32,313 nucleotides of DNA from Verrucomicrobia bacterium UBA1731 (GCA_002317575.1 DCIH01000081.1:1-32313); one strand, 5' to 3'. Positions 9,717-32,259 are shown, counted from the stretch's first letter. The notes: generated from the sequence alone by a model not told the origin. A program made the numbers and translations.

Positions 9717-10075
9717 TGAAGCGGTGCGTTCTCGGGCTTTCGCTTTGCTGCCTTTTCGCCGGCTGCGCCTGGCGCACGCAAATCGAACGCGGCGTCGTTT
9801 CCACGAGCGCGATCGATTTCGGCAAGCGCTATGAAGTCGACACCTCCAAGAAGATTTCCGGCGCGGACCGCGCGCACGGCGTCTGGCTCATCCCGCTCGG
9901 TTCGCCCGACGCGGATCTGGCCGTCCAGAAGACGCTCGCCGACGCGAACAAGAAGTCCGCGCGCAAGATCGTGGGCATCGCCAACACCGAGGTCAAGTTC
10001 CGGCTTCTGTGGCTGTACCTGTACAGCCAGCGCTGGTACTCGGTCGAAGGCAACCCGATCTACGAAGCGAAGTGA
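9716..10075 (+). CDS. small lipoprotein (119 aa), paralog of the previous gene
   Basis: ATG 9716 overlaps the upstream TGA (TGATG) and is preceded by GAAGGAGG (9701-9708). The N-terminus MKRCVLGLSLCCLFAGC carries the same FAGC lipobox, and the C-terminal motif is EGNPI. It is in frame with the C-terminal end of the spurious ORF 8021..10075. Confidence 0.75.
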   Translation: MKRCVLGLSLCCLFAGCAWRTQIERGVVSTSAIDFGKRYEVDTSKKISGADRAHGVWLIPLGSPDADLAVQKTLADANKKSARKIVGIANTEVKFRLLWLYLYSQRWYSVEGNPIYEAK

Positions 10076-10133: not shown

Positions 10134-10249
10134 AATCCGCAGTTCGGGACGAACTGCTCTACGGGGTGGGACGTCGAGGAGGGCGCTAATCCGCAGTTCG
10201 GGACGAACTGCTCTACGGGGCGGGGCGTATCTTGTGATATAATCCGCCC
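10134..10249 (+). repeat. 54-bp tandem repeat (2 full copies plus a 7-bp third start), each full copy carrying the 19-bp palindrome GCAGTTCG-GGA-CGAACTGC
   Basis: aatccgcagttcgggacgaactgctctacgggg occurs identically at 10134-10166 and 10188-10220. aatccgc recurs at 10242, exactly 54 bp further on. The palindromes are at 10139-10157 and 10193-10211. I did not find this palindrome elsewhere in the window. Confidence 0.85.
10235..10243 (+). promoter_or_regulatory. extended -10 element TGaTATAAT placed for a leaderless transcript of the FAD oxidoreductase gene
   Basis: tgatataat is at 10235-10243. The A of ATG 10250 lies exactly 7 nt after the last T of the hexamer. There is no SD and no -35-like hexamer. 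Confidence 0.35.
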
Positions 10250-13181: not shown

Positions 13182-13225
13182 AAGCGGCGCCCTCGCCGCT
13201 TCCAGATAGCGGCGTGCCGTTTTTC
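13182..13225 (+). terminator. hairpin aagcggcg(ccct)cgccgctt with a distal T-run, a weak terminator candidate after the oxidoreductase gene
   Basis: An 8-bp stem spans 13182-13189 and 13194-13201 with a CCCT loop. The TTTTT run at 13220-13224 is not adjacent to the stem. Confidence 0.3.
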
Positions 13226-13243
13226 AAATTTCCGCGAAATCCG

Positions 13244-13272
13244 TTGTTTTTACGCTTAAATTTTGGTAATAT
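13244..13272 (+). promoter_or_regulatory. sigma70-like promoter candidate for the giant gene: -35 TTGTTT, 17-nt spacer, extended -10 TGgTAATAT
   Basis: ttgttt is at 13244-13249 and tggtaatat at 13264-13272, in an AT-rich spacer with upstream T/A runs. It lies about 44 nt upstream of ATG 13316. Confidence 0.4.
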
Positions 13273-13315
13273 ATCCATCGGTGGAAACCATCAGTTTTCC
13301 GCCGACATACCCTTT

Positions 13316-16300
13316 ATGATCAAGACAACTGGACAGCTGTTGTCTCTCTACGCGCGCGTGAGCGCACGCGTAGTGGGGCTTTTTTCGCGCGCGCGCGGAA
13401 GCGCGCTCGCGCTCGCGACGCTGGCGCTCGCGCTCTTCGCGCCGACTGCGGCGCGGGCGGATCAGTACACGTACGCCGCCACGGTGATGAGTTCCGAGTG
13501 GGTGAAGATCCAGGACAACGTCACCGACATCACGCGCGTCACGCCCGTTTCCGCCATCACGGTTGGCGGCGCGCTCGGCGTGTACACGGCCTATCCGTAC
13601 TATGTGAAGGTCAACGGCAACCAGATGACCTTCCAGATCCAGGTCGAGACCGACTGGCTCAAATGCATGGGCATGGCGTTCAAGGTCGAAGGCGACAAGC
13701 TCTACGCCCGCCAGACCTACGCCCGCTACACCACGAAGACGACGGCGGGCACGGTGGATTTCGACACGGCCTCCGTTTCGCAGGGCACCATCGGCACGGG
13801 CGGCTACGGCATCCAGTCGATCACGTTCGACTACGTGGCGCTCGTCGAAGCGGTGCCCGCGGAATACCAGCGGCTGCAGTACCTCAAGTCCTCCGGCACG
13901 CAGTACGTCGACACGGGCGTCGCGGTGAAGAACACGATTTCCGTCGAGGCGAAGATCCTGAACGTGAAGAACGACGCGTCCATGCACATGGTCGGCGCGC
14001 GCACCGCGTTCCAGAACCAGGCCATCGGCCTCTCGTTCCAGATTGAAAGCGGCAACCAGGGCTACGCCGCCGCGTACGGCACCGAGGTCGCGTACTCGAT
14101 GCTCGGCAACGACCTCGTCGGCGGCGTGTCGGACGGCTGGCACGTGTTCAAGATCGGCGCCACGGCGAAGGTGGACGACGCGACGAAGCACGCCTTCACC
14201 GCGCAGACGTTCTCCTCGGACAAGAACATCTACGCCTTCACCGTGAACAACGGCGGCACGCCGCACGCGCAGATGGCGTCCATCTCGATCGCGTGGCTGC
14301 TGATCAAGGACGGCGAGTCCATCGAGCGGTATCTGCTGCCGGTGCGCCGCCTTTCGGACGACGAACTCGGCTTCTACGACACGGTGAACGACGTCTGGTA
14401 CCCGAACGCTGGCACGGGCGTGTTCGAGGCGGGTCCCGCGTACGTGGACCTCCACACGTATCCCGCCGAATGGATCGAGAACACGTACGATTCCTACTTC
14501 GTGACGGACTACTGCCCCGGTCCCGACACGCGCACCGACGCGAAGTTCATCCCCTACAACGGGCTCGGTCCGGTCAGCGAATGGACATCCTCCGGCCAGT
14601 CCGTGTCCTCGCGCTACGGCACGCTCTGGGGCACGCGCCCCGGCACCACGGACTACCGCTGCTACCAGATCAGCACCTACTCCACCATCGCCGACTACGC
14701 GAGCTACCGCGGCGGCAGCGGCGACACGCTCCAGTTCGACTTCCACATGACGCGCGGCGAGGTGACCGAGTTCCGCGAGACGGACACGGAAATCGTCGTG
14801 AACGGCGTCACCGTCGCCACGGGCGTCACCCGCTCCGGCGCCACCGACGTGCCGATCGCCATCTTCGCGATCAACAACAACGGCAGCATCGTCCAGCGCG
14901 GCAAGTACCGTCTCTTCCACCTGCGCTTCTGGGAGAAGGGCAAGCTCGTGCGTTCCTACGTGCCGTACGTGAAGAACGACGTCGTGGGCCTCTTCGAAGA
15001 ATGCACGGGCACGTTCCTCGCGCCGCGCGGCACGGGCACCGTCTCGTCCGGTCCGGTCGCCGCGTACGACGACGACGCGCTCGAGGTCGAAGCGCCCGCG
15101 TCCACCTCGGTCGGCGCGCCGTCCCCGGCGTACGGGCGCCGCCAGCCGCTCGCGCAAGGCGACGCGTTCGACTGCACGTTCCCCGCGTTCGAGACGAACG
15201 GCTTCCGCTACGTCGCCACGGGCTGGACGCTCTACACGAATTCGGCCGCCGGCGGCATGCATGCGTGGAAATCGGGCACGGGCGACACGTGCGCCTACGT
15301 CCACCCCGGCCGCTTCGCGAAGCTGCGGTGGGATGTCGCGATCGCCGCCGCGCCCGTCGCGTCGCCCGTCGCGCCCACGAACCTCTACGAACGAATCGAA
15401 TACGTGGAGTCCACCGGCTCGCAGTACGTGAAGTCCGGCTACTGCGCCAAGATGTGGACGGAAACGCGCGTCGGCTACCAGTTCCTGGGCGCGCCGGTGG
15501 CGTACGGCAACATCGTCGCCTCGCGCGCCAGCAACAACAGCGCCTACTTGTACGCCGCGGCGCGCGTCTCGAACGTCACGCCCACGTCGCACGAGCACTA
15601 CTACGGCAATGTCAACATCGCGCGTAGCTATGCCGCCGGTCAAACCACCTACCACGAAACCGTGTTCAACGACCCGCTCCACCGTCTGTACGAAGACGGC
15701 TTCTACCTCGGCGCGTGGGCGCACGGCAGCTTCAGCGAGGCCGTGCCCGTCGAGCTCTTCATCTTCGCGCGCAACACGGGCAGCGGCGTGGAACAGCAGG
15801 CCCAGGCCCGCATCCACCACCTCGAGTTCTGGGAGTTCGGCGTGCCGGCCACGGCGTTCATTCCCGTCAAACGCCTTTCCGACGGCGCGGTGGGTTTCTA
15901 CGACGCGGCCCAGGGCGTCTTCTGGGGTGCGAGCGGCACGGGCGCGCTGATCGCCGGTCCCCACGCCGAGACGGCGGACGGCCTGCGCGTTTCGGGCACC
16001 GCGGGCATGCCCGCCGTCGCGGACCTCGCGCCCGCGGCCGGCGACACGTGGCACCACGCGCCCGGCGAAGCGATCGCGTGCACGTCCTTCGCGGCGGCCG
16101 CCGCGGACGGTTTCCTGTACGCGTGCAACGGCTACGTCGTCTACACGAATGACCTCGCCGGCGCGCGCCACCCGTGGCTCGCGGGCAGCGAGCTTTCCGT
16201 CGCCTTCGCGCATCCCGGCTCTTTCACCACCGTCGAATGGCAGTGGGAGAAGAAGGCGCCGGGCATGCCGTGGTCCTCGGCGTCGTACGTGCAGGACGGC

Positions 16301-19300
16301 CTCCTGGCGCACTGGGACGGCATCGAAAACGTCGCCCCGTTCACGCACGCCGACGCCACCGCGAGCTGGGTGGACCTCGTGGGCGGCCGCGCATTCGCGC
16401 TCACGGCCGCCACCGTGGGCGACAAGGGGCTGACCTTCGCCGGCAACGTATCCTCTTTCGGATACCTCTCGCCCGCGGACACGGCCGCGGTCTTCGACGC
16501 GCCCCTCGAACCGACGGTCGAACTCGTCTACCGCTACGCCGGTGGCACCGCCAACGGCATCCCGCTGATGTCGTCGTCGAAGTCCGGCATCGCGCTGGGC
16601 GTGCACAATTCGGGCCAGAACGTCATCCTGTCCAACACCCGCAACGGCATCGCGCCGTATTTCACCAGCGGAACGGCCGTCCGCACCGTCGCCACGCACT
16701 ACAGTTCCCGCAAGGCCGTCGCGGCGTGGGGCGACGGCGCGCAGTTCACCTCGTTCAACGCCGAGAACAACTGGAGCTACGCCGACACCGCCACGTGGAT
16801 CGGCAAACGCAACTACGACAACGCGCCGTTCAAGGGCGACGTGATGGCCCTGCGCGTGTACAACCGCCATCTGTCCGCGGCGGAGATCGTTCACAACAAA
16901 CTTGTCGACGACTACCGCTTCCGCGGCGTCTCGTATGCGGACGTGGTGGACGTCGCCGGCGAACCGGGGCGGTACGGCGAGTCGTCGCCCGACTACGGCA
17001 TCCACGCGGGCTACGCGTCGGGCGCGGAGGTGTCGGCGTCGTTGACGTCCGGCACCGTCACGGCGGGCGACGTGACCGCGACGTGCACGGGCTACGTCGT
17101 GTACACCAACGCGCCCAACACGGATGCGTGGACGCCGTGGCTCAGCGGTTCGGGCACGTCCGTCTCGTTCAACCACCCGGGCGTCGCCGTGCGCCTCGTG
17201 TGGCAGTGGCGCACGAGCGCCGCCGCGTCGCTTTCCTTCATCGGCTTTTCCGCCACGAACGTGGCGTCCGTGACCGTGTCCGCGCACGTCGGCGGCTGGG
17301 GCGACGCCGCGACGGCGTCGCTCAAGGCGGCGTGGGGCTTCGCGCCGGACGCGCTCGACTTCACCACGACGCTGCAGGAAACGGCCGTCGCCGGCACGGA
17401 CGTCCGCAAGACGCTCCAGCTGCCGCCCGGCGCCACCTGCTACGTGAAGCTCTTCCTCGAGGATTCGGACGGCGGCAAGACGTGGGTGACGACGGATCCC
17501 GAGGTCGTGACGCTGCCCGACGCGTACGCGCCGCTCCATCCCGACGCCTACAGCTACGTGGGCTCGAGCACGAATCTGTTCCACTGGGACGGCATCGACA
17601 ACGCGGGCACGGGCATCCACGACTCCTCCTCGACGATCTGGAAGGACCTTTCGGGCTGCGGCTACGACCTGCAGCTCACGCCGCGCGGCTCGTGGCGCGC
17701 GAACGCGATGGCCGTGGACGACTACTCCGCGCGGTACCTGGGCGGCAAGGGTCCGCTGTACCAGACGATCGAAGCGGTGTTCCGCACGACGTCCGCGCCG
17801 AACAACTGGGGCATGATCTTTACGGCCGAGCGCAAGCATTCGAGCCCGCACCACGTGATGACGGGCAACTACGGCCGCTACGCGTGGTTCTCCACGGCGA
17901 GCGCCGCCGAGCGCGCGCTCTATCTCGGCGACGACATCGCCGTGCCGCACGGCGTGGCCGCCACCTACAACGCCATCAGCGACAGCGCCGCGCCGGACGG
18001 CTTCTTCCTGGACGGCGCGCGCGTCGTCGAGCCGCCCGTGCTGTCCACCACGTTCAACAACGGCGACGGCTACATGGCCGTCGGCGCGCGCAAGCCAAAC
18101 GAGGGACTGTATTCGTTCTTCGGCGACGTGTACGCGATCCGCGCGTGGGGCGGGCGTCTCACGGACGTGGAACTCCTGGCGAACAACCGCATCGACCGCA
18201 TCCGCTTCTTCGGCGAAGAGCCGGCGGACGGCTTGGTGGTGACGGGCGATCCCGCCGTGTACGGCGCGGCGGCGCCGTGCGCGGGCCGCCACTACGGTCT
18301 TTCGGAAGGGGCGTCCTTCATCTGCTCGGCGGCGGCGAGCGTGTCCCTCGCGGGCGGCGCCACGGCGACGTGCCAGGGCTGGAACCTGTACACGAACGTC
18401 GCCGGCACGGCGGATTGGGCGCTCGCCGCGTCGGGCGCGGGCGCGACGTGCGCGTACGTGCACGGAAAGACGGCCGCGAAGCTCGAATGGCGCTACGCCG
18501 TGGAAGGTCCCGCGGGCGTGACGTTCCTGGGGCAGACGGCCACGAACCGCACCTCGGCGGCGTTCGTCACCTCGGTGAGCGGTTTCGGAACGGGCGTGAC
18601 GGCGGCGGATCTCGCGGTCGCGTGGGGCGTCACGTCCGGTGAATACGCCGTCACCTCGGTCGTGTGTTCCGCCGTCGCGGGCCAGGTGGCGACGAACCGC
18701 TACGAAGGCGTGCCGCCGGGCGCGGCCGTGGCGAAACTGCTCCTTCTGGACAAGACGACAGGCGCGGTGCTCGCCGAATCGGCCGAGTGCCGCATCGCCG
18801 CCCTGGACAACGCGGGCGCGCTGCGCGAGCCGTTCGTGGAGGTGAACGGCAACGCGTGGTTCGACACGGGCCACAAGCCCACCGTCCAGTCGCGCGTGGA
18901 GATCGACTATCGCTTCCTCCAGACGTACAAGCAGTACCGCGTCTTCGGCGTGGAGGCGGGCACGCTGTTCATGACCGTGTACCAGAACGGTTCCGGCTTC
19001 TGGGCGTACGCGCACCAGAACAATTCCGGCAACGGGATCGCCACCGCGACGTACACCGACGTGAAGCGCCACTTCCTCGTGTACGACATGAAGAATTCGG
19101 TCTTCTCGATCGACTACGGTTCCACGGCCTACGCGAGCCCGATGACCGGAACCGCTTCGCAGAACGCGAACAACACGCTGTATGTGTGCAAGGGCAACGG
19201 CGACTCCAACCCCGCGGCGCAGATGCGCGTGTACGATTTCAGGATCTACGAAAACGACGCGCTCGTGCAGCATCTCGTGCCGCGCGAGGTGGACGGCGAA

Positions 19301-25300: not shown

Positions 25301-28300
25301 ATGTGGTTCGACAAGAAAACATACACCTTCGGCGGCGCGTACGACGACTACTACTACCTGAAGGTGAACGGCACGGTGATGCTCAACGGCGGCGGCAGCG
25401 GTCTCGGCACGAAGCAGTGGGACGTGCCGACGGCGGGCTGGTACCCGATCGAGCTGCGCGTGTGCGACACGGGCGGCGGGTACGGTCCGTGGAACTGGAA
25501 CTGGGGCGTCGCATGGAACATGACGGGCTACAAGACGCAGGACAGCTCGAACAACTGGAAACCGTTCCAGGACACGGGCGACGGCACGCTGCTGCGGACG
25601 GAGCCGGGTCTGGGCGGCATCGAGATCGTGCAGGAAAACGTCGAGGACGGCAAGCTTATGTCCGTCGATCTCCAGTTCGGCGCCATCAAGACCGCGGGCA
25701 CGCTGTACGCGCTCTATTCCGACGTCGCCGGCACGGAAAAGACGAACACCTGGCGGTATGTCGAGAAGGTGGGCTCGCTCGCGAAGGGCGCCACGACGTT
25801 CACCGCGAGCGTCACGAACCTGTGGGGCGCCGCGGACCGCCGGGTGCTGTGCTTCTACTACCAGACCGCGTCGGAGTTGATCGGGTCCGAAAACCTCTAC
25901 TTCCGCGACTACCGCGCGCCGTACCTGACGGAACTCGAAGTCGGCGGACGCGGCGGCGACACGTTGAACGTCACGGGCCGTCTCAAGTCGTACCAGGGAC
26001 CGACGTGCGAGCTGAAGATCTGGGTGGGCGAAACGCGCGAGAACCTGAATGTGTGCTGGGCCGGTTTCCCGGGCAGCCGCCGCACCAAGGCGCGCAGCTT
26101 CAATTTCGACCTCTTCGAGGCGGATGTCGCGTCGGACCACTACTTCAGGCCGGGCAACACCTACTTCGTCTGCGTCGAGGCCATCGACACCTTCGGCCGC
26201 ACCTACCGTTCGAAGGTGCTGGAGGTGACGATGTCGGCGGAGTCCGCGTTCGCGAGCGCGACGCTCACGGAGATGAACCGCCGCACGGCGAAGTGGTCCG
26301 TGAAGATGGCCGAACTCGGCGCCAGCGACCTCGACACCGTCTCGCTCTGGATCGGCACGGAAGCCGCCACCAACGAATTCGGCGAGGCGGACGAAGCGCA
26401 GTTCACGCAGCCCATGGCGGCGCAGTCCATCTTCGACAACACGTCGCACGAATTCGCCTACACATTCCCGGAACTCGAAAAGGACTACTTCTGGCAGTTC
26501 CGAAGCGCGAACGCGACGCAGGGCGGCACCACGAACTGGGTGATCCGCACCGCGCCGCAGGTCGTCTCCACGAAGGACACCACCACCTACACGTGGCGGC
26601 GCAGCGTCCGCGAGGGCCGCTGGGACGATCCCGCGAACTGGAGCGCGAACACCTCCGACGCCATCGGCTGGCCTTCGTCCAAGAGCTGTTCGGTCAATTT
26701 CGACCACGGCACCGAAGCGATCATCCACTGCCCCACGAACATCTACGTGGACTACATCTACTTCAATTCGAAGCACATGAAGCTCACGTTCGACACGAAG
26801 GGCCGCGTTCCCGGCGACGAACCGATCGAGTTCTACGCGCCGCGCATCCGGTTCTTCGACAACAAGTCGGACAACACCGACTACGCGGACGAAATCTCGT
26901 TCTCCGACCTGAAGGTGTGGTGGAGCTACGACTGGGACTACCACCCCGTGGGCTGGCGCCTCACATTCACGGACGGCGCGATCTTCAACTATCCGCACGA
27001 CGGCTTCCGCTGCTACCCCACCACGAAGAACGCGCCGTACGGCTGGAACCAGTTCGAGGTCCTGAACGGCGCCACGGCGAACTTCAACAACTACTACTTC
27101 GGCGGCGGCGCGCGCGTTCTGGTGTCCAACGCCACGATGGTCTGCCGCAGCCAGTTCCTCGTGAGCTGCTGGCAGGGCGGCGGCGTGGTGCGCTTCGAAG
27201 GCACGAACCCCGTGCTGAAGGTGGGCTCCAATTTCCGCGGCGACGTGGACATGTCCGGCAACGTCGCCCTCACGAACAAGTGGGGAGGCTGCGAGTTCAA
27301 CGTGCCCGCGGGCGGGTACGCGGAGCCGCCGATCCAGTTCACGGGCACGGGCAACTACCTTTTCGGCGGGTCCGACGCGGACGGAAAGATCGCCAAGCCC
27401 GTGCAGCTGTGGATTGACCCCCTGAGCCCCGCCGCCTGGACGGACGAAACGATCACCTCGCCGCTCGTGACGTGGAGCAAGGGCGTGAACACCAACCAGG
27501 TGCAGCTGATGACGCTGCCGAACGCCGAAACGGACGCGCTGCTCTACAGTTCGCCGTTGCAGACCGCGTGGACCGAGACGAACGCCTGGGACGCCGCGTA
27601 CGGCGTCGCCACCGGTCTCGCCGTCAGGATCGTGGGCGATTCGCGGTCGGGATCGGTGACGGTGACGGCGTGGCCCGCCGAAAAGGCGGAAGGGGACGGC
27701 GCGTTCATGCCCACCTCGGACGCGAACGGCCGCGCCTACGAGACGTTCGACGATGTTCTGGACGGCTACGTGTTCAAGTGCCCCGCCGCGTACGAGAAAA
27801 CGGACGAGCGCGGCACGTGCGCGGGCTGGAAGTGGTACGCGGAGGATCCGTTCACGCACGTGCGCACCCTCGTAAGCGAGGGATCGGGCAACAACGCGAC
27901 GTACGTGCAGACGAACGCGTGGATGATCCTCGAGTGGCAGTGGGCCGTCGAGTACCGCGTCACGGTGAACATTGTCGGTTCGGGACAGGTTGCGGGCGAC
28001 GCGGAGCAGTGGGTCGCGCACGGCGCCTCGCCGGATCTCGTCGCCACCGAATCGGACACGACGGCGTTCTACCGGTGGAACGCGCGTTCTGGTACGCTGG
28101 ATCTGGCCCAGCCGGACCGCATGACCACGAACCTCACGTGTGTGGTCACGGGGCCGCTCCAGCTCGAGGCGCAGTTCGGAAAGTGCATCTTCGTGGCGAC
28201 GAACGGCAACGATTCGTTGAACGGCCTCACGCTCGGAAACGCGAAGAAGACCGTGCTCAACGCCTACAACGCGGCCGCGGACGGCGACAGCATTCTGGTG

Positions 28301-31300
28301 GACGCCGGCGACCACAACTTCTACAAGTCGAACAATGACAACGACATCCTGCTGATGACGAAGGCCGTGACGATCCGTTCGCTTTCGGGCGACCCCGCGT
28401 CCGCGCGGCTGTACAATTCCGCGCGCAACCGCCGCGTTCTCATCATGCGCAACGCGAGCGGGCGGTTGAAGGACATCACGATCCGCTACGGCAGCACGAG
28501 CGCGAACAGCCAGCGCGGTTCGTGCGTGTGCATCGACACGCAGGGCGGCATCGTCGACAACTGCATCATCCGCGACGGCATCACCGGCAACTGGGGCGCG
28601 TCCGCGGGCGGCATTTCGTGCTACAGCGGCAACGGCTACATCTTCAATTCCGTGATCACGAACTGCACGATGAACAACTACGACCAGCCCTACGGCACGG
28701 CCGTGTACATGGAAAAGGGGCTCATGCGCAATTGCCGCATCACGGGCTGCTACACGTACAATCCGTCGTACGGCACGTACGGCACCGTGTACCTCACCGG
28801 TTCCGCGCGGATGGAATCGACGCAGCTCGACCACAACCAGGCGCGCGATTTCGCCGGCGTGTACGTGGAGGGCAACTCAACCGCCACGGTAGACGGCTGC
28901 ACCTTCTGGGAGAACGTGGTCGCCGGCGACACCGTGAACGAGTACCGCGATGTCTTCGACGGCCCCGAATCGCGCTTCACCAACTGCAAGGCCCGCAAGG
29001 CGTTCGACGAGAACTGGACCGCCATCGGCGGCATCGTCGACGAATCGTTGCCGCTCTCGCTGATGCCCACGCCCTCGAAGATCGTGCAGGGGCAGTCCAT
29101 CTGGTTCACGCCGCACTACGCGCCGGCGGAGGTGAAGCCGATCGAGGCCTACCAGTACGTGTTCGGCGACGGCTCGACGCAGTCGTATCCGGGACCTTCC
29201 GACGGCGTGTCGCTTTCGGGGACGACGCACACGTACACCGTGCCGAAGATCTACTCGCCGAAGTTGAACATCCGCTACACGGACCAGTCCGTGCGCACCT
29301 TCGAACTTGAGAAGGGCATCACCGTGTTCCCGACGAACATGTACGTGCGCAACGCGTCCTTCCGACTCGGTTCGGCCGTGCCCGAATTCCCGTACAACGA
29401 TCCCCAGTACAATTCGCACACGAACATCTTCGAGCTCGTGGACATGGCGATCGACGGCTGCACGATCGTGGTGGACGGTCCCAAGAACGGCGTCGCGCAG
29501 ATTCCGCTCCTGGACAAGACGCTGCACGTGCAGCGCGCGATCACCATCCGCGGCATGGATCCGGCCGATCCCGGACGCACGCAGATCTACCGCAGCAAAA
29601 CCTCGGACAACCGCCTGATCCGTCTGGACCACCCCCAGGCGCGCTTGGAGCATCTGTGCATCTCGAACGCCTACTGCACCCAATGGGGCGAAAACAACGA
29701 CGGGCGCGGCTACACATTCACGATGCAGGGCTACGGCGGCGTCGTTTCGAACTGCGTGGTGAAGAACAACAGGACGTCGCAGTCGCGTCTCGCCTGCTTC
29801 GCCAACGGGGCGAAGTCGATCATCACGCACACCACGTTCACGAACAACATCGCCGAAGGCGCTCAGATCGACGGCGCAGTGGCGCTCATGATCAGCGGCG
29901 GCGCCCAGGCGGACAACTGCCTCTTCACCGGCAACATCATGGCGTCCGGCACGGGCACGCAAACGATCCCCACCGTGTGGGTGGACAACGGCTGGCTCGT
30001 GAACTGCACGATCGTGAACAACACGACGCGCCGACTGGGCGGCGTCTACGCGAACGGTACCTACGGCAGGGTGGTGAACTGCGTGATTCTCGGCAATCTC
30101 GCCGTGGCGCGCACGGAGGACTACAACGACGTGGACGCGTCGCAGTCGGCGGCGTATTTCAATTGTGTCACTTCGGTGGATTTCCCGTACAACGAAACGT
30201 GCACGAAGGAGAATCCTTGGAACGTGTTCAACGACTGGGACAACGGCGATTTGACGCCGTTCCCTGCCGGCGCCCTGCACGAGAAGGGCACGAAGACGAT
30301 CAACCAGGGAACGGTCGTGCCGTACGGAAAGACGGACTTTGCGGGTAATCCGCGTCTTGTGGGCAAAGTTCCGGACATCGGCTGCTGGGAGTGCCAGAAC
30401 ACGAATTCGTTCCAGATCGGCTTCGCCGTGAGCGACAATGTGGTCGCGGAGGGCGGCGAGTTGTCGTTCACGCCGTACGTGATGGGCGGCAAGATGACGG
30501 ACACCTTCGAGTACTGGTGGGATCCCACCACCTACGGCTTCAACGACCAGCTCAACAACATCATCTATACGACCGAGCCCACCAACGTGGTTTGGCGCTA
30601 CAGCGGCATAGGCGACAAATCGCCGCAGCTGAAGGTGACGAAGAACCGCGGCAAGGTCGACGAGGAGACGGTGACCGTCAAGCGCCAGAATCTCGTGTAC
30701 GTGACGCCCGAATGCGTGTACGTGGACCAGAACAGCCGCTATCCCATATATCCGTACGCTTCTTGGGCGACCGCGGCCACGAATCTCGAGGAAGCCATTT
30801 CCATCGCCCGCACGGGCGCGAAGGTGACGCTCGCCGAGGGCACCTACGACATCAAGGCCCCCATCGAGATCAAATACGGCATCACCGTCCGCGGTCCGAC
30901 GAACGACCCCGCCAAGGCCATGATCCGCATGCCCGGAGTCACCAGCAAGGACTACATGCTCAAGATGTCCAACGCCAAGTTGGTGGTGTCGGGACTTACC
31001 CTGGACGCGGGCGCCAAAAACGGCAAATACAACGGTTGCGTGCTCGTCGACTACGGCGGCGGCACGATCTCGAACTGCGTCCTCCAAAACGCCTGGCCGA
31101 ACGAGCGGTGGCAGAGCGGATTCACGTGGCGCAATCTGAGCGGCTACGGTCTTTTGACGCACTCGAAGGTGACCAATTGCGCGGTGTTGCAAAACGGCGC
31201 CACGGACGGCAACATGCGTTCGATTTTGAGCAACGAATCGCAGAGCGGACGCATTTCGAACTGCCTGATCTGCGACAACAACGTCCGGGACAATTCAAAC

Positions 31301-31780
31301 GACAATCGTCCGATCATCCGCAACTGGGGCACGATGGACAACTGCACGATCGTGAACAACAACATCTACCGCACGGGCAACTACGGCCAGCACATCCGCA
31401 ACGAAAGCGCCCTCGCGCAGTGCATCAACTGCGTGTTCGCCCACAACACGGTGGGCACGACGGAGGCCAACCGCGCGCTGACGCTCGCCTACAGCATGGG
31501 CGCGTCGACGAACCTCTGCAACGCGCTGGACTGCAACGCCGTATTCGGCAAGCAGCTCATCGAAATCGACGAGGACCGCTACCGCGACTACTTCCAGGAC
31601 GCGAACGGCGGCGACTTCCATTCGTCCGCGCGCAGCAAGATCAAGAACGGCGGCACGGCGGAGGCGGTCCCGCTTCCCGCCGGCGACTACGACGGCCGCA
31701 AGCGCTGGGTCGGCCAGAATCCCGACGTCGGCTGCTACGAAAGCATAACGCCCGACGGCCTGCTGCTCATTTTCAAGTAA
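13316..31780 (+). CDS. giant secreted mosaic lectin/adhesin-like protein with three C-terminal right-handed beta-helix modules (6154 aa)
   Basis: This is an uninterrupted 18.5-kb ORF with G/C-ending codons throughout. ATG 13316 is the first ATG downstream of the promoter candidate; the ORF-track GTG at 13214 lies upstream of it. The signal peptide is MIKTTGQLLSLYARVSARVVGLFSRARGSALALATLALALFAPTAARA/DQ (13316-13459). Modules recognised by motif are listed in the findings. Confidence 0.9.
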   Translation: MIKTTGQLLSLYARVSARVVGLFSRARGSALALATLALALFAPTAARADQYTYAATVMSSEWVKIQDNVTDITRVTPVSAITVGGALGVYTAYPYYVKVNGNQMTFQIQVETDWLKCMGMAFKVEGDKLYARQTYARYTTKTTAGTVDFDTASVSQGTIGTGGYGIQSITFDYVALVEAVPAEYQRLQYLKSSGTQYVDTGVAVKNTISVEAKILNVKNDASMHMVGARTAFQNQAIGLSFQIESGNQGYAAAYGTEVAYSMLGNDLVGGVSDGWHVFKIGATAKVDDATKHAFTAQTFSSDKNIYAFTVNNGGTPHAQMASISIAWLLIKDGESIERYLLPVRRLSDDELGFYDTVNDVWYPNAGTGVFEAGPAYVDLHTYPAEWIENTYDSYFVTDYCPGPDTRTDAKFIPYNGLGPVSEWTSSGQSVSSRYGTLWGTRPGTTDYRCYQISTYSTIADYASYRGGSGDTLQFDFHMTRGEVTEFRETDTEIVVNGVTVATGVTRSGATDVPIAIFAINNNGSIVQRGKYRLFHLRFWEKGKLVRSYVPYVKNDVVGLFEECTGTFLAPRGTGTVSSGPVAAYDDDALEVEAPASTSVGAPSPAYGRRQPLAQGDAFDCTFPAFETNGFRYVATGWTLYTNSAAGGMHAWKSGTGDTCAYVHPGRFAKLRWDVAIAAAPVASPVAPTNLYERIEYVESTGSQYVKSGYCAKMWTETRVGYQFLGAPVAYGNIVASRASNNSAYLYAAARVSNVTPTSHEHYYGNVNIARSYAAGQTTYHETVFNDPLHRLYEDGFYLGAWAHGSFSEAVPVELFIFARNTGSGVEQQAQARIHHLEFWEFGVPATAFIPVKRLSDGAVGFYDAAQGVFWGASGTGALIAGPHAETADGLRVSGTAGMPAVADLAPAAGDTWHHAPGEAIACTSFAAAAADGFLYACNGYVVYTNDLAGARHPWLAGSELSVAFAHPGSFTTVEWQWEKKAPGMPWSSASYVQDGLLAHWDGIENVAPFTHADATASWVDLVGGRAFALTAATVGDKGLTFAGNVSSFGYLSPADTAAVFDAPLEPTVELVYRYAGGTANGIPLMSSSKSGIALGVHNSGQNVILSNTRNGIAPYFTSGTAVRTVATHYSSRKAVAAWGDGAQFTSFNAENNWSYADTATWIGKRNYDNAPFKGDVMALRVYNRHLSAAEIVHNKLVDDYRFRGVSYADVVDVAGEPGRYGESSPDYGIHAGYASGAEVSASLTSGTVTAGDVTATCTGYVVYTNAPNTDAWTPWLSGSGTSVSFNHPGVAVRLVWQWRTSAAASLSFIGFSATNVASVTVSAHVGGWGDAATASLKAAWGFAPDALDFTTTLQETAVAGTDVRKTLQLPPGATCYVKLFLEDSDGGKTWVTTDPEVVTLPDAYAPLHPDAYSYVGSSTNLFHWDGIDNAGTGIHDSSSTIWKDLSGCGYDLQLTPRGSWRANAMAVDDYSARYLGGKGPLYQTIEAVFRTTSAPNNWGMIFTAERKHSSPHHVMTGNYGRYAWFSTASAAERALYLGDDIAVPHGVAATYNAISDSAAPDGFFLDGARVVEPPVLSTTFNNGDGYMAVGARKPNEGLYSFFGDVYAIRAWGGRLTDVELLANNRIDRIRFFGEEPADGLVVTGDPAVYGAAAPCAGRHYGLSEGASFICSAAASVSLAGGATATCQGWNLYTNVAGTADWALAASGAGATCAYVHGKTAAKLEWRYAVEGPAGVTFLGQTATNRTSAAFVTSVSGFGTGVTAADLAVAWGVTSGEYAVTSVVCSAVAGQVATNRYEGVPPGAAVAKLLLLDKTTGAVLAESAECRIAALDNAGALREPFVEVNGNAWFDTGHKPTVQSRVEIDYRFLQTYKQYRVFGVEAGTLFMTVYQNGSGFWAYAHQNNSGNGIATATYTDVKRHFLVYDMKNSVFSIDYGSTAYASPMTGTASQNANNTLYVCKGNGDSNPAAQMRVYDFRIYENDALVQHLVPREVDGEGVLWDVVANAAHKSITTVPASFGAENPGADALEVVGSPVDGGAVLPAYGAHLGIEIGDAFTCVAPKDAAGDVKYVCTGWEIWRHVADTFDDWTLEASGDGNVCTYVHGATAGRLVWKWSVKGPAGVSAAAATAVARTSATIPVSIAGFGYAADSADLYAAWGYSADVLAFTNRMMSSVTPATTPDVTLDGLAPGATVHVRFFLKDNLGNVTEAPAATSFTTSDFWWREEFAPMAKATGSQCFDTGIYPNRGTRVTFTQATTDKSADKMTFGERNYGFNFLVWFGKTAGTTVSPVIAGATTSVADYSSGKAPGERWTLDFGLLSGLWVDDVEFLSGFWFKANYDSAATSTGTLYLMGLHDKNNAGEARRYVGEFYRSKVYQDGALVRDYRPRLKDDGVTCGIYDAVANAWVATTGTFEWGGLKPLEDDSLVVAGFPGESSTPGPSYGRHSDLAEGDAFTCSAPAFVDGTRIGRVAGWKLYEAVPDETAWQLVAEGDGDAVDYAHGTESMKLEWQWRYWDEPGLTFNGVCETNGTSVRIDATVKGFGYDAETASLEIAWGYDAGTYLYTNVLAAVVYPGFVTNFLFDGLSPATEYHARLFLRDSVGGIVEMSNAAEIVFETENTGLSEEPRYVAALVGVNTLEYVTFNGSTYVTTGIIPSGHEIQFTYRTVYSTAFVNDAHVIGTDYSGSSYNYVHWTEWGSGATRVDQQHYCWGYDGSELNNYGTVVTNVIHVVDYNKKNGSTYETWLDGTRTTFSKLSKSYSVLNIGRRSSVTNWKGDMFEFAMIDHATGQDVLHYYPAKDPDGKVCFFDAVARKYVYPSAGTLVAGPESNPSAEFLSMVRVSGKPVEKRGTTTPGYGIFTGYAQGDKIENATAFYHVKDGVTGFPVGYTVYTNDVSGARVPWFAEDVSGDWAARLASHANLVFSTNHPGCATWIDWNWVYLGEKGLAFNDVVETNTANAMLDVNVTGWGYDAPRAQLKMAYGFRPDNLQYTNVLWDVAVPGTATNIFATGFIPGQHYYLRLFLEDSAGGIVDCGVTRELETSMDWEEVATEGATGDPGVNFGGFGVGFSGRSDDNYRFDDKYYPPNTNVELSVSKNIAAGTSVYAPGNQSVLVYWGSIYLKGGTYNFAAQYMDYLWLKIDDQVLMRSTDWANVQRASITRDPGWYKFEARFSHGSGNWGGSFGLRYNIGGSSTSSNKSDYPNDVADTGDGTFLRTGSGGFLEDCFLVAGAPSNYMSFAASPLPCYGRYATLAEGDGFVATSPHQFDDGRAFLTTIGWQIDRWSNAANAFALESEGDGTNTWYRHGTTAGKLTWIFLVSNHLEVAANVARRGDVAYKRAGETDWHVFPSDFNVLFATNEVVTIRAFPGKGTAGSQGYSFKKWSGELPSGVDRESAEIQIRMDVPRRITATFDAPYSIGATSKATFKIAGYTGSGALENFPVPVRLSEATMDGFDYSRAADGGEDLRFYDQWGEPLLFDVENWDAKGESVAWVSVPNMDNGVEITMMYGDGQSADDNDPTEVWSRADYKAVYHMNQEGKQQEDATGNDAMTATTTADVLLGAGMVGSAIYKTGTLTAPNIHANAGVNSKSYTVSGWYYWPDNSAGTQWTDPFSNGGWGSWSWYFEYNYSNYSLRFIRNANVTGYFNTLDSSKYWNHLCISYNGSRFDIYVNGVRNTTASQAWTSEPSATPLSISTFKGWVDETRVRNAVSSADWILAEYMFATNGARAVCTDVSAVGGGGETIYVGVNPTGLDIGGEGFTPDIGGCLDKPVSGTSYGFAAPTYWTSADGQLMGVRRGYVVRREDGWCQTNRTGSSTANRSFSEMEELQWQYDVFHGLVETNGDNVAFGFTASGFVPPEITATTGTVFALWGYTESALVNSNRLATVTTGAYHRCVLNGLEPEHAYVARVYFRLPDGSLQEDPHGLYRFCTTSPAFGGQPGLFQYRVNTSGNGIGTAVDWSQHKDDRVLAAFPVFKTYSWKSADGMKSYSWSGGGTWAWSGYMWFDKKTYTFGGAYDDYYYLKVNGTVMLNGGGSGLGTKQWDVPTAGWYPIELRVCDTGGGYGPWNWNWGVAWNMTGYKTQDSSNNWKPFQDTGDGTLLRTEPGLGGIEIVQENVEDGKLMSVDLQFGAIKTAGTLYALYSDVAGTEKTNTWRYVEKVGSLAKGATTFTASVTNLWGAADRRVLCFYYQTASELIGSENLYFRDYRAPYLTELEVGGRGGDTLNVTGRLKSYQGPTCELKIWVGETRENLNVCWAGFPGSRRTKARSFNFDLFEADVASDHYFRPGNTYFVCVEAIDTFGRTYRSKVLEVTMSAESAFASATLTEMNRRTAKWSVKMAELGASDLDTVSLWIGTEAATNEFGEADEAQFTQPMAAQSIFDNTSHEFAYTFPELEKDYFWQFRSANATQGGTTNWVIRTAPQVVSTKDTTTYTWRRSVREGRWDDPANWSANTSDAIGWPSSKSCSVNFDHGTEAIIHCPTNIYVDYIYFNSKHMKLTFDTKGRVPGDEPIEFYAPRIRFFDNKSDNTDYADEISFSDLKVWWSYDWDYHPVGWRLTFTDGAIFNYPHDGFRCYPTTKNAPYGWNQFEVLNGATANFNNYYFGGGARVLVSNATMVCRSQFLVSCWQGGGVVRFEGTNPVLKVGSNFRGDVDMSGNVALTNKWGGCEFNVPAGGYAEPPIQFTGTGNYLFGGSDADGKIAKPVQLWIDPLSPAAWTDETITSPLVTWSKGVNTNQVQLMTLPNAETDALLYSSPLQTAWTETNAWDAAYGVATGLAVRIVGDSRSGSVTVTAWPAEKAEGDGAFMPTSDANGRAYETFDDVLDGYVFKCPAAYEKTDERGTCAGWKWYAEDPFTHVRTLVSEGSGNNATYVQTNAWMILEWQWAVEYRVTVNIVGSGQVAGDAEQWVAHGASPDLVATESDTTAFYRWNARSGTLDLAQPDRMTTNLTCVVTGPLQLEAQFGKCIFVATNGNDSLNGLTLGNAKKTVLNAYNAAADGDSILVDAGDHNFYKSNNDNDILLMTKAVTIRSLSGDPASARLYNSARNRRVLIMRNASGRLKDITIRYGSTSANSQRGSCVCIDTQGGIVDNCIIRDGITGNWGASAGGISCYSGNGYIFNSVITNCTMNNYDQPYGTAVYMEKGLMRNCRITGCYTYNPSYGTYGTVYLTGSARMESTQLDHNQARDFAGVYVEGNSTATVDGCTFWENVVAGDTVNEYRDVFDGPESRFTNCKARKAFDENWTAIGGIVDESLPLSLMPTPSKIVQGQSIWFTPHYAPAEVKPIEAYQYVFGDGSTQSYPGPSDGVSLSGTTHTYTVPKIYSPKLNIRYTDQSVRTFELEKGITVFPTNMYVRNASFRLGSAVPEFPYNDPQYNSHTNIFELVDMAIDGCTIVVDGPKNGVAQIPLLDKTLHVQRAITIRGMDPADPGRTQIYRSKTSDNRLIRLDHPQARLEHLCISNAYCTQWGENNDGRGYTFTMQGYGGVVSNCVVKNNRTSQSRLACFANGAKSIITHTTFTNNIAEGAQIDGAVALMISGGAQADNCLFTGNIMASGTGTQTIPTVWVDNGWLVNCTIVNNTTRRLGGVYANGTYGRVVNCVILGNLAVARTEDYNDVDASQSAAYFNCVTSVDFPYNETCTKENPWNVFNDWDNGDLTPFPAGALHEKGTKTINQGTVVPYGKTDFAGNPRLVGKVPDIGCWECQNTNSFQIGFAVSDNVVAEGGELSFTPYVMGGKMTDTFEYWWDPTTYGFNDQLNNIIYTTEPTNVVWRYSGIGDKSPQLKVTKNRGKVDEETVTVKRQNLVYVTPECVYVDQNSRYPIYPYASWATAATNLEEAISIARTGAKVTLAEGTYDIKAPIEIKYGITVRGPTNDPAKAMIRMPGVTSKDYMLKMSNAKLVVSGLTLDAGAKNGKYNGCVLVDYGGGTISNCVLQNAWPNERWQSGFTWRNLSGYGLLTHSKVTNCAVLQNGATDGNMRSILSNESQSGRISNCLICDNNVRDNSNDNRPIIRNWGTMDNCTIVNNNIYRTGNYGQHIRNESALAQCINCVFAHNTVGTTEANRALTLAYSMGASTNLCNALDCNAVFGKQLIEIDEDRYRDYFQDANGGDFHSSARSKIKNGGTAEAVPLPAGDYDGRKRWVGQNPDVGCYESITPDGLLLIFK
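22466..22948 (+). other. PA14-like module 1 of the giant protein
   Basis: VYWGSIYLKGGTYNFAAQYMDYLWLKIDDQVLM...GWYKFEARFSHGSGNWGGSFGLRY follows the PA14 pattern (G-x-Y-x-F, D-D-x-x-x-L-x-I-[DN], G-W-Y-x-[IF]-E). It ends in DTGDGTFLRT. Confidence 0.6.
23567..24460 (+). other. DUF2341-like plus LamG-like pair in the giant protein
   Basis: LENFPVPVRLSE...DGGEDLRFYDQWGEPLLFDVENWDAKGESVAWVSVPNM...ITMMYGD resembles the DUF2341 signature. It is followed by a LamG-like segment: YTVSGWYYW...WNHLCISYNGSRFDIYVNG...GWVDETRVRNAVSSADWILAEY. Confidence 0.55.
25115..25600 (+). other. PA14-like module 2 of the giant protein
   Basis: WSGYMWFDKKTYTFGGAYDDYYYLKVNGTVML...GWYPIELRVCDTGGGYGPWNW fits the PA14 pattern. 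It ends in DTGDGTLLRT, the same terminal motif as module 1. Confidence 0.6.
28184..31744 (+). other. three consecutive right-handed parallel beta-helix (pectate-lyase-fold-like) modules separated by PKD-like linkers
   Basis: Each module opens with a short x-[IV]-[FY]-V motif (CIFVATNGND...AADGDSILVDAGDHNF; NMYVRNAS...AIDGCTIVVDG; CVYVDQNS...ARTGAKVTLAEGTYDI). Many N-C-x-[IVF] rungs follow, for example VDNCIIRDG, FNSVITNCT, VSNCVVKNN, LVNCTIVNN, ISNCVLQNA and MDNCTIVNN. Modules 2 and 3 end in DFAGNPRLVGKVPDIGCWEC and DYDGRKRWVGQNPDVGCYES. Confidence 0.65.
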
Positions 31781-31855
31781 TGCATTTGGTCGTGGATGGA
31801 AAAACCAGACACGCACCACAAAAGGCCAACATGCCAACCATCCCGTAATTTCAAG

Positions 31856-31881
31856 CGCGGGGCCCCTGCCCCGCGTGTTTT
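31856..31881 (+). terminator. rho-independent terminator 1 after the giant gene
   Basis: cgcggggc(ccct)gccccgcg is an 8-bp GC stem (31856-31863 and 31868-31875) followed by TGTTTT. It starts 76 nt after stop 31780. Confidence 0.7.
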
Positions 31882-31900: not shown

Positions 31901-31930
31901 CCCGCGCGTGCTTGCGCGGGTTTGATTTTG
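31901..31930 (+). terminator. rho-independent terminator 2, in tandem with terminator 1
   Basis: cccgcgc(gtgctt)gcgcggg (31901-31907 and 31914-31920) is followed by TTTGATTTTG. On the minus strand it is followed by an A-run, so it looks plus-strand-specific. Confidence 0.6.
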
Positions 31931-31947: not shown

Positions 31948-32259
31948 TCATTTCGCCGCCGTGATCGGCACGTTCACTTGCTGGGCGTTCGCCTGGACGA
32001 CGCCGTTCGTGTCGCCGCCCGCATGTGTGGCCGTTTGCGTGGAATGCGAAATCCATGCGACCGCCGGAATGCCCACGGCGAAGATTTCCGTGTGCTGTCC
32101 GCGCGTCGCGGGAACGAGGGACGAGCAACCGCTCGTGGTCGCCACCATTCCGCCGCCGAGCGCGCCGAGAAGCACCGGCTTCGCCGCCGCCCACAGGGCT
32201 TTCCCGAGTGCGCGCCAGTCGATGCGCGCAATCATGTTCTTGATGATTTCAGTGTTCAT
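31948..32259 (-). CDS. small hypothetical membrane protein or lipoprotein (103 aa), convergent with the giant gene
   Basis: The minus-strand ATG at 32259 is preceded by GAAAGGAAACAAC, the same SD-like AAAGGAAAC motif seen at 3072 and 9362. Codons are G/C-ending. Hydrophobic segments are AAAKPVLLGALGGGMVATTSGC and IFAVGIPAVAWI. The overlapping alternative ORFs are Arg/Pro-rich and lack an SD. Confidence 0.55.
   Translation of the reverse strand: MNTEIIKNMIARIDWRALGKALWAAAKPVLLGALGGGMVATTSGCSSLVPATRGQHTEIFAVGIPAVAWISHSTQTATHAGGDTNGVVQANAQQVNVPITAAK

Follow-up and report, generated by a model that had tools for sequence, protein, structure and literature searches.

A 6154-residue modular protein from a Verrucomicrobia-labelled genome ends in a conserved C-terminal heptapeptide, a probable surface-sorting tag

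Introduction

Giant modular surface proteins are recognised in the Planctomycetes-Verrucomicrobia-Chlamydiae (PVC) bacteria, but as a class they are poorly characterised. Over 41,000 proteins longer than 5000 amino acids (aa) have been recorded; they are over-represented in the PVC phyla, and in bacteria surface proteins make up one of their main classes (PMC11573180). Giant proteins of the surface or adhesin type, in PVC bacteria and in other phyla, are encoded by a single giant open reading frame (ORF), carry an N-terminal export signal and consist of arrays of immunoglobulin-like (Ig), fibronectin type III (FN3) and lectin domains, and most of them are uncharacterised (PMC11573180). Here we analyse a gene with the same layout on a contig assigned to Verrucomicrobia bacterium UBA1731 (GCA_002317575.1 DCIH01000081.1:1-32313), whose whole length of 32,313 nucleotides is called the window below. 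The gene lies on the + strand at 13316-31780 and encodes a protein of 6154 aa, roughly 0.65 MDa as estimated from its length. Size alone does not make this protein exceptional; our main finding concerns its last seven residues, which form a conserved C-terminal tag that is probably a surface-sorting signal.

The described C-terminal sorting signals, PEP-CTERM, LPXTG, GlyGly-CTERM and the C-terminal domain (CTD) of type IX secretion system (T9SS) cargo, are strictly C-terminal, independent of the architecture of the protein, restricted to certain lineages and found on proteins with signal peptides. Choice-of-anchor domains are followed, depending on the protein, by one or another of several C-terminal sorting signals. 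The β-signal of outer-membrane proteins, which is recognised by the BAM/Omp85 machinery, is also short and located at the extreme C-terminus, but its last residue is aromatic and it forms part of a β-barrel. In the class to which we assign the present organism, the cultured Kiritimatiella glycovorans has a diderm, Gram-negative envelope with an outer membrane and possesses Sec, Tat and a type II system, and the Kiritimatiellae degrade polysaccharides and export many enzymes (PMC5148204).

Results

A conserved C-terminal tag

The giant protein terminates in …GCYESITPDGLLLIFK. The original prediction, made from the DNA sequence of the window, took this for an abrupt end, but the last residues belong to a motif shared with most relatives and preceded by a choice-of-anchor Q-like motif, so that a candidate for an anchor or sorting signal does exist. 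The two elements of this region are the following.

31745-31756, + strand: ITPD, the four residues upstream of the tag, part of the 11-13-residue stretch from GCYE to the stop codon
31757-31777, + strand: C-terminal tag GLLLIFK-COOH, consensus G-[TLFM]-x-[LI]-[ILMF]-[VLI]-[RKQ]

The tag is the C-terminal end of 131 of the 150 best family representatives, and two further representatives carry close variants. Position -7 is Gly in 98 of the 131, followed by T/L/F/M at -6, M/L/V/I at -5, L/I at -4, I/L/M/F at -3 and V/L/I at -2, and the last residue is Arg in 96, Lys in 23 and Gln in 10. A cap motif, D-[IL]-G-C-Y-E, lies a few residues upstream of the tag; in 114 of the 131, this motif and the stop are 11-13 residues apart. 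Signal-peptide-like N-termini were found by a crude test in 104 of the 131 tag-bearing relatives. In an orthologue that is 65% identical, PDGLLLIFK is unchanged, with 4 synonymous and 0 non-synonymous differences over its nine codons.

The motif is specific to the C-terminal position. In the loci that we fetched, all collected through one gene family, the motif ends 10 of 729 non-overlapping ORFs of at least 150 aa, where 0.064 would be expected from its internal frequency (34 motifs at 386,177 internal positions; Poisson P ~3e-19). It is also found on several architectures. In what follows, P-numbers designate homologous proteins and L-numbers the fetched loci. The tag ends P0002, a protein made of the A module only (…GTKIIFR), fusions of FAD_oxidored with PATR repeats of about 2200 aa, an F5/8C protein with PATR repeats, a PA14 protein, proteins with a single beta-helix, and an ORF of about 2979 aa in Joint Genome Institute (JGI) metagenomes that also carries a PA14-like module and the Ig-like stretch described below.

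A conserved hydrophobic tail need not be a sorting signal. The heptapeptide might be a folding or docking strand, an oligomerisation element or the site of a C-terminal processing protease, with export depending on something else. Hydrophobic C-terminal peptides are classic ligands of PDZ-domain proteases, and most of the tagged proteins were retrieved through one beta-helix family, so co-inheritance could inflate their number. We nevertheless consider this explanation improbable, since the tag also ends the A-module-only, PA14, F5/8C plus PATR and FAD_oxidored plus PATR proteins, which have neither a beta-helix nor choice-of-anchor Q. Moreover, the last ten residues of the giant protein are modelled by AlphaFold2 as an unpacked coil of low confidence (pLDDT, the predicted local distance difference test, ~51) beside a confident beta-helix. 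The choice-of-anchor Q-like motif directly precedes the tag at the C-terminus, whereas the internal copy of this cap after beta-helix 2 precedes a PKD domain and has no tag. The heptapeptide thus occupies the slot in which the choice-of-anchor concept, here supported by a match to NF041518, places a sorting signal.

Among the 150 top relatives, 131 have the tag and 13 have a tail of the [FY]YR[VLI]xV type, while no PEP-CTERM, LPXTG or T9SS variant was seen. Neither tail is a recognised signal, but a minority tail beside the tag would fit the "choice of anchor" idea. The alternative tail reads approximately [FYW][FY]R[VLI]x[VL]xxx-COOH, for example AFYRVRVQLP, GYYRVSVEVP and LFFRIRVEGR, and occurs in P0011, P0062, P0090, P0092, P0101, P0103, P0105, P0110, P0111, P0121, P0127, P0132, P0150 and P0152. 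It may be a second unrecognised C-terminal signal or a terminal β-strand. Separately, some tags (…GGFTLIVR in P0012, P0056, P0145 and others) resemble the cleavage motif of prepilin peptidase, G|FTLIE. Pilin-like proteins are much expanded in these phyla, and the resemblance may be a coincidence.

Comparison with known export and sorting signals

We scanned the giant protein against Pfam in ten overlapping pieces, with separate scans of single modules, and against the NCBIfam profiles, and we searched its two halves against the sequences of the PDB. No NCBIfam or Pfam model matches the tag, and neither database gives a sorting-domain match anywhere in the protein. Regular expressions found no LPXTG, no PEP motif with a hydrophobic run and no lipobox in the whole protein, and hydropathy shows no transmembrane-like segment beyond residue 60. 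The list of missing signals in the original prediction (LPXTG, PEP-CTERM, T9SS CTD, autotransporter, RTX and lipobox) therefore stands.

Each of the known routes was considered in turn. A PEP-CTERM/exosortase substrate would have a PEP motif, a transmembrane helix of roughly 20 aa and an Arg-rich cluster at the C-terminus; no PEP motif with a hydrophobic run, no transmembrane-like window beyond residue 60 and no NCBIfam match was found. No LPxTG of a sortase substrate occurs anywhere in the protein, and the host class is diderm. The CTD of about 70-100 aa of T9SS cargo is not matched (TIGR04183/Pfam), and the last 350 aa are a beta-helix with its cap. Autotransporters and two-partner secretion are not supported, as there is no barrel or two-partner match and no Omp85/TpsB among the neighbouring genes. 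A type I secretion/RTX substrate was rejected in view of the Sec-type signal; there is also no HemolysinCabind match and no ATP-binding cassette (ABC) or membrane fusion protein (MFP) gene in the neighbourhood. The outer-membrane β-signal was rejected as well, as 129 of the 131 tags end in R, K or Q and there is no barrel.

The tag nevertheless has much in common with these systems. As in the described sorting signals, it is strictly C-terminal, independent of architecture, restricted to a lineage and located on proteins with signal peptides, and its Gly at -7, hydrophobic run and terminal basic residue echo their layout of motif, hydrophobic stretch and basic cluster. It differs from all of them in having about five hydrophobic residues and a single basic one, no transmembrane helix, no PEP, LPXTG or GlyGly motif and no β-sandwich CTD of about 80 aa. 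Without a transmembrane helix or a known signature, it cannot work like the known inner-membrane sortase-type systems. With the β-signal it shares its shortness, its extreme C-terminal position, a Gly followed by hydrophobic residues and the possibility of being read as an extended strand, but it ends in R, K or Q on a beta-helix fold of 350 aa.

Thus, the tag behaves as a sorting signal by every sequence-level criterion tested and misses the defining features of each known signal. We conclude from the sequence comparisons that the last seven residues are a conserved, position-specific and architecture-independent C-terminal tag of this lineage, which is probably a surface-sorting signal. In the full-text literature we found no description of a tag-like C-terminal signal in Kiritimatiellae, Lentisphaerae or Verrucomicrobia, although one may exist outside the literature covered. 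It is conceivable, and we propose it only tentatively, that the tag represents an undescribed class of sorting signals of Kiritimatiellae/Lentisphaerae-type PVC bacteria, which would export or retain large surface proteins by a machinery other than sortase, exosortase, rhombosortase or T9SS. If this were true, the 6154-aa protein would be the largest known cargo of the tag.

The beta-helix cassette preceding the tag

The tag follows a cassette of three right-handed beta-helices separated by PKD-like modules.

28184-29020, + strand: right-handed beta-helix 1; PF13229, E=1.8e-9, 37.8 bits against a cut-off of 25.9 when scanned alone
29072-29332, + strand: PKD-like module 1; E=0.004, PKD significant in homologues
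29336-30394, + strand: right-handed beta-helix 2; self-similarity and NCBIfam choice_anch_Q
30287-30397, + strand: choice-of-anchor Q domain closing beta-helix 2 (…DFAGNPRLVGKVPDIGCWEC); 31.1 bits with NF041518 (cut-off 25)
30410-30703, + strand: PKD-like module 2; faint PKD_4 in the orthologue, PKD in homologues
30710-31744, + strand: right-handed beta-helix 3; AlphaFold2 and Foldseek, with a terminal choice-of-anchor Q-like cap at 31622-31744

All three beta-helices had been recognised in the original prediction, and each is now supported by a different line of evidence, as listed. The PKD-like label is weak in the giant protein itself, but homologues have PKD between their beta-helices wherever positions were checked. 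The domain at the end of beta-helix 2 is the only NCBIfam match in the giant protein; the terminal copy stays below threshold (18.5 bits, E=0.0018), and 11 residues separate its end from the stop. For the last 350 aa, AlphaFold2 with an alignment of 29 sequences gives a confident right-handed beta-helix (pLDDT 81.9; predicted template modelling score 0.87).

The top Foldseek matches of beta-helix 3 are all beta-helix proteins, including lyases of the polysaccharide lyase families PL6 and PL9 and Rhombotarget A. PL6 alginate lyase, the PL9 pectate lyase Pel9A and chondroitinase B are matched with template modelling (TM) scores of about 0.4-0.5 and 14-17% identity. Rhombotarget A of Acinetobacter (9cdu/9cdv) and the lyases (7dmk, 1ru4, 1dbg) have a right-handed parallel beta-helix of similar size (TM ~0.5). 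Rhombotarget A is likewise an exported protein with a C-terminal sorting tag, GlyGly-CTERM. The giant protein has no GlyGly-CTERM, and its three helices in tandem end a protein of 6154 aa.

These matches raise the question of an enzymatic function. The protein could be a released extracellular polysaccharide-degrading enzyme, with active PL6/PL9-type beta-helices, lectin modules serving as carbohydrate-binding modules and the tag acting as an outer-membrane secretion signal. Besides the structural matches, Pfam gives weak matches to DUF5123 and DUF4957, which accompany beta-helix polysaccharide lyases. Exported proteins encoded nearby include a CE7-type acetyl xylan esterase, and degradation of polysaccharides by many exported enzymes is a trait of the class (PMC5148204). 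However, no CAZy-type Pfam family reaches its threshold, the identity to the lyases is low, and for Rhombotarget A, another top match, no function is stated in the literature covered. In addition, three catalytic beta-helices in tandem with about 13 binding modules would be an unusual design for an enzyme. The conservation pattern of the helices also bears on this question, as a PL6 or PL9 lyase would have a conserved catalytic base and Ca2+-binding acidic residues in the groove of the helix, and the resemblance to these families is one of fold. Among 29 aligned family members, the invariant columns of the helix body are Asn, Cys, Thr and Gly, which we read as ladder residues, and no charged residue is conserved there, the invariant charged residues being confined to the terminal cap. 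Conservation limited in this way favours a binding or structural role, which appears more likely than catalysis for these beta-helices, and we regard a released enzyme as unlikely.

Integrity of the giant open reading frame

The ORF scan of the window and the terminator-like signals around the gene give the following boundaries.

13194-13214, + strand: terminator-like hairpin between the FAD (flavin adenine dinucleotide) oxidoreductase gene and the giant gene; consensus scan only
13214-31780, + strand: longest frame containing the giant gene, with a GTG start
13316-31780, + strand: giant gene from ATG to stop, 6154 aa
31855-31920, + strand: two terminator-like hairpins (31855-31876 and 31901-31920) downstream of the stop codon; consensus matches only

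The only stop in the frame starting at ATG 13316 is the terminal one. The genes upstream of the giant gene recur on an independent JGI metagenome contig (3300001598, EMG_10004005), which stops inside the giant gene; the gene caller used for this contig picks the same start, and aa 1-2012 of the giant protein are 100% identical on it by tblastn, over about 6 kb. The flanking hairpins lead us to suggest that the giant gene is its own, monocistronic transcription unit.

As the source is metagenomic, the ORF might be a chimera, a product of collapsed repeats, a fusion of genes by sequencing error or a pseudogene. The original prediction had itself raised the concern of an assembly collapse. In self-BLAST, however, the internal repeats are 24-52% identical, mostly 25-45%, which identifies them as modules too diverged to be collapsed by an assembler. 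The GC (guanine plus cytosine) content is not constant along the ORF, with values of about 0.69-0.70 between 15 and 20 kb and of about 0.60-0.64 across the beta-helix cassette (28-32 kb), which could be taken as a sign of a chimera but may also reflect a mosaic origin of the C-terminal cassette. The sequence has 65% GC, and at this composition 6154 codons remain open.

Two fragments from another sample, deposited in ENA, are colinear with the giant protein: P0003 is 65% identical over the last 1216 aa of the giant protein, and P0001, from the same sample as P0003, is 57-61% identical across the F3/A5 junction. Together they indicate that an orthologue exists in a related organism. The orthologous ENA contig L086, of low coverage, shows homology upstream of the called start at 3-149 and has one in-frame stop there, near the contig end, which could point to a broken gene; at 3x coverage this stop may be a sequencing error, the alternative being that the orthologue is truly split. 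Besides the identity over 6 kb and the colinear fragments, a signal peptide at one end and the conserved tag at the other fit one complete protein, and the JGI ORF of about 2979 aa combines some of the same modules with the tag at its end. An artefact is therefore very improbable. The single 18.5-kb ORF of 6154 aa, as originally predicted, is confirmed as a real, single and intact gene.

Module architecture

The region upstream of the beta-helix cassette consists of the following modules.

13316-13459, + strand: Sec-type signal peptide, aa 1-48; basic n-region, hydrophobic core ALALATLALALF, then ARA|DQ; hydropathy and regular expression
13460-13864, + strand: N-terminal domain, aa 49-183; not in Pfam, shared with P0083 and P0039
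13865-14437, + strand: A1, jelly-roll lectin-like; self-BLAST, alignments
14459-15055, + strand: A2, jelly-roll lectin-like; self-BLAST, alignments
15119-15337, + strand: B1, small β module (Ig-like); self-BLAST, alignment
15386-15961, + strand: A3, jelly-roll lectin-like; self-BLAST, alignments
16025-16246, + strand: B2; self-BLAST, alignment
16283-16927, + strand: LamG1 (Laminin_G_3, PF13385); Pfam, 29.2 bits against a cut-off of 27.6
16982-17518, + strand: B3 and F1 (FN3-like); self-BLAST, alignment
17549-18214, + strand: LamG2; below the Pfam threshold, E=5e-8 against LamG1
18266-18805, + strand: B4 and F2; self-BLAST, alignment
18827-19384, + strand: A4; self-BLAST, alignments
19430-19963, + strand: B5 and F3; self-BLAST, alignment
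19988-21157, + strand: A5-B6-F4 triad of jelly-roll, small Ig-like and FN3 modules; AlphaFold2, Foldseek
21218-21784, + strand: A6; alignments
21857-22426, + strand: B7 and F5; self-BLAST, alignment
22466-22948, + strand: PA14-like module 1, weakly supported label; self-BLAST, homologous modules in relatives
23024-23248, + strand: B8; alignment
23261-23536, + strand: Flg_new_2 module 1 (divergent InlB B-repeat, PF18998), aa 3316-3407; 23.9 bits against a cut-off of 23.6
23567-24460, + strand: DUF2341 (PF10102) and LamG3; DUF2341 32.8 bits against 23.4, Laminin_G_3 36.0 against 27.6
24572-25087, + strand: B9 and F6; alignment
25115-25600, + strand: PA14-like module 2; self-BLAST, pairwise match, modules in relatives
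25601-26581, + strand: Ig-like stretch, aa 4096-4422; weak MG4 match, shared with P0030, P0063 and P0131
26582-27700, + strand: Trp-rich region, aa 4423-4795; not in Pfam, shared with P0005, P0030, P0049, P0063, P0072 and P0170
27704-27943, + strand: B10; alignment
27953-28180, + strand: Flg_new_2-like module 2; aligns with Pfam-positive Flg_new_2 segments of homologues

The Sec-type signal agrees with the original prediction and with the start chosen by the JGI gene caller. It contains no Cys, so the protein is not a lipoprotein. Over some 4900 residues, the modules are arranged as beads on a string, in which a lectin-type head is followed by B and F modules, repeatedly. There are about a dozen such heads: six A modules, three LamG, two PA14-like modules and DUF2341.

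The six A modules all align with each other, as do the ten B and the six F modules. The model of the A5-B6-F4 triad is all-β (AlphaFold2, pLDDT 74), and its Foldseek matches in the PDB are MAM-Ig-FN3 ectodomains, neurexin LNS domains and FN3 tandems, which identify A as a jelly-roll of the ConA/MAM/LNS kind, B as a small Ig-like domain and F as FN3-like. B modules were also considered as InlB B-repeats, but hhalign against the Flg_new_2-type modules gave a probability of 0.1%. In the two PA14-like modules, PA14 (PF07691) has no Pfam match even at E<=5, and a pairwise comparison with a Pfam-positive PA14 domain gives E=0.002 over the core motif, so we label them, with weak support, as PA14-like rather than as members of PA14.

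Most labels of the original module map are borne out by these results: those of A1-A6, B1-B10 and F1-F6 by repeat alignments and the triad model, those of LamG1, LamG3, DUF2341 and the first InlB-B-repeat-like module by Pfam matches above threshold, and that of LamG2 through LamG1. The PA14-like and PKD-like labels are only weakly supported, as are the "three Ig/Fn3-like stretches", for which the weak MG4 match is the sole support. The boundary originally drawn at 26581 was one base out of frame.

Apart from two above-threshold Laminin_G_3 matches, DUF2341 and one Flg_new_2, the ten pieces give only weak matches in Pfam, to PKD and DUF5123. Pfam and NCBIfam together cover a minority of the giant protein, and neither half has a sequence match in the PDB. 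Compared with described giant adhesins, the protein has no Big, cadherin, RTX, dockerin or DUF11 repeats, its A, B, Trp-rich and N-terminal domains lie outside Pfam, and its triple beta-helix cassette and tag are distinct.

Relatives and reuse of modules

An exhaustive phmmer search with the last 456 residues retrieved 2101 cluster representatives at E<=1e-3, of which 177 reach E<=1e-30. These cassette relatives are mostly 1200-2000 aa long, with two to five beta-helix stretches. The statement that the protein has no characterised homologue holds for the PDB and for most of its length in Pfam and NCBIfam, but the protein is no orphan, given these representatives and the orthologous fragments. 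The window protein is the most expanded member of the family that we saw. P0032, which has three stretches matched by the cassette in phmmer, can be read as a short version, with a signal peptide, LamG, B, about three beta-helices and the tail.

The N-terminal domain and the Trp-rich region, originally left unassigned, both recur in cassette relatives. The N-terminal domain is found just after the signal peptide in P0083 and P0039, from residue 28-30, and the match to the Trp-rich region starts near residue 30 in several relatives. The Ig-like stretch, the PA14-like module and the Trp-rich region recur among P0030, P0005, P0049, P0063 and P0072. In P0030 the three (PA14-like, Ig-like, Trp-rich) are contiguous and in the same order, with the best beta-helix stretch further downstream at residues 1930-2277. 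Tandem modules resembling DUF2341 and LamG3 occur in L011 and L090.

Other modules have few relatives. Word-indexed searches gave 2 matches for A5-B6-F4, 4 for a profile of the A module and 1 for the Trp-rich region, which means that these modules are either rare or too diverged for this kind of search. In metagenomes, the Trp-rich region has only distant relatives and no further orthologue.

The A module alone, compared with BFVD by Foldseek, matches gut phage proteins over about 200 columns at 18-22% identity. The sequence relatives P0167-P0169 and the BFVD entries A0A8S5P150, A0A8S5NUX5 and A0A8S5TMI0 share the A fold and the motifs (Y)xxLEYVESTGSQYV…LVRDxxP. These phage proteins are short and uncharacterised, with a single A copy at the C-terminus, whereas the giant cellular protein has six embedded copies. 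The gene of P0168 (L087/L088, 10001-11128) lies between DUF285/LRR_5 genes, on a contig with an SPP1-type portal, GH25 and dUTPase; we read this position as that of a tail or receptor-binding protein, although it is not annotated so. P0168 has no tblastn match among GenBank phages, and the A modules have one marginal match in PHROGs.

Organism and genomic neighbourhood

The FAD oxidoreductase encoded upstream of the giant gene is 75% and 65% identical to proteins of two metagenome-assembled genomes (MAGs) of Kiritimatiellae, on the basis of which we place the organism in this class. The 80 related loci come mostly from MAGs labelled Kiritimatiellae, Lentisphaerae or Verrucomicrobia, many of them from rumen and gut. 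Neither of the two closest MAGs has the giant gene downstream of its oxidoreductase gene. A conserved operon partnership between the two is therefore rejected, and the giant gene is an accessory gene at this site.

The neighbours of the giant gene encode an exported CE7-type acetyl xylan esterase, a LamG-like protein, a TPR protein, a metallophosphatase, two small lipoproteins and the FAD oxidoreductase. None of them is a secretion component, Omp85/TpsB or ABC/MFP gene, in agreement with the original prediction. The missing secretion partner is, however, no anomaly: the class has Sec, Tat and a type II system, and secretion systems are not normally encoded beside their cargo.

In the FAD oxidoreductase, the peptide SDTGSDRGFDMD occurs three times in tandem and in frame at about 10850-10960 (aa ~195-235), between the two FAD-binding halves, and this region has the highest GC content of the window, 0.75. 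The two small lipoprotein genes (9375-9716 and 9716-10075) encode products of 113 and 119 aa with lipobox-type signals and are so close together that the stop codon of one abuts or overlaps the start codon of the other. Together with the metallophosphatase gene they are conserved in three independent assemblies (L001-L003), and they have no family match.

Just downstream of the giant gene, a small convergent gene (31948-32259, - strand) encodes a lipoprotein-like product with a counterpart in L086 (3806-4036, - strand). The mature parts of the two are 83% identical, and the signal of the L086 protein reads …LLAACGC|SS. As a general partner of tag-bearing genes it was rejected, since it is syntenic in the window and L086 only and in no other fetched locus.

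Exported FAD_oxidored (PF12831), the family to which the oxidoreductase upstream of the giant gene belongs, is encoded in fusion with PATR repeats and the tag in L055 (9254-15934), L036 (13275-19991), L051 (4520-11191) and L069 (4536-7373). In L039, an oxidoreductase homologue is flanked by two tag-bearing proteins (239-2206 and 10147-11847), one of which is positive for Pfam Beta_helix. There is a hint here of a recurrent link between the FAD_oxidored family and tag-bearing surface proteins.

Discussion

We favour, with moderate confidence, the hypothesis that the giant protein is an exported, cell-surface, multivalent glycan-binding protein of gut Kiritimatiellae, similar to an adhesin or capture protein, which is sorted or retained through the lineage-specific C-terminal tag. 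Sec would carry the protein across the inner membrane, and the surface would be reached through machinery encoded elsewhere, the type II system being the one route across the outer membrane reported for the class. The tag would then direct surface sorting or retention. With a hydrophobic run of only about five residues, it is not long enough to cross a membrane, and we propose that it is read as an extended strand. In the simplest model, a periplasmic or outer-membrane receptor would recognise this strand, or the tag as a free C-terminal peptide, and the protein may be cleaved or attached at the conserved Gly -7. The C-terminus would in this way be proximal to the cell, and the N-terminal lectin array would project outwards and capture plant or host polysaccharides.

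Several points weigh against this hypothesis. The machinery that would read the tag is hypothetical, and the tag could serve secretion, quality control or proteolytic maturation instead of retention. To our knowledge, no cargo of type II secretion comes anywhere near 0.65 MDa. Glycan binding by the lectin-type modules is suggested by their folds only, the A-B-F model is of moderate quality (pLDDT 74) with low multi-domain TM-scores of 0.2-0.3, and the Trp-rich region has no fold assignment. A catalytic role would be compatible with the PL6 and PL9 lyases, which beta-helix 3 resembles most in structure. Lastly, the single family behind the loci limits the enrichment test, and of its ten tag-ending ORFs three are paralogous FAD_oxidored fusions and two were known beforehand; the independent ones still number about 6, against about 0.06 expected.

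Bacteria of the Kiritimatiellae and related groups abound as degraders of polysaccharides in animal guts and in sediments, and the way in which they place enzymes and binding proteins at or beyond the outer membrane is poorly understood. As a short sequence rule, the tag lends itself to direct testing and would predict the surface and secreted proteome of an uncultured lineage. It points to a sorting machinery which could be traced by phylogenetic profiling, and it would account for the handling of the giant lectin-array proteins of this lineage. The A and B modules, the Trp-rich region and the N-terminal domain add reusable building blocks that are invisible to Pfam, and the presence of the A module in both gut phage proteins and the giant protein hints at common glycan targets of phages and bacterial surface proteins.

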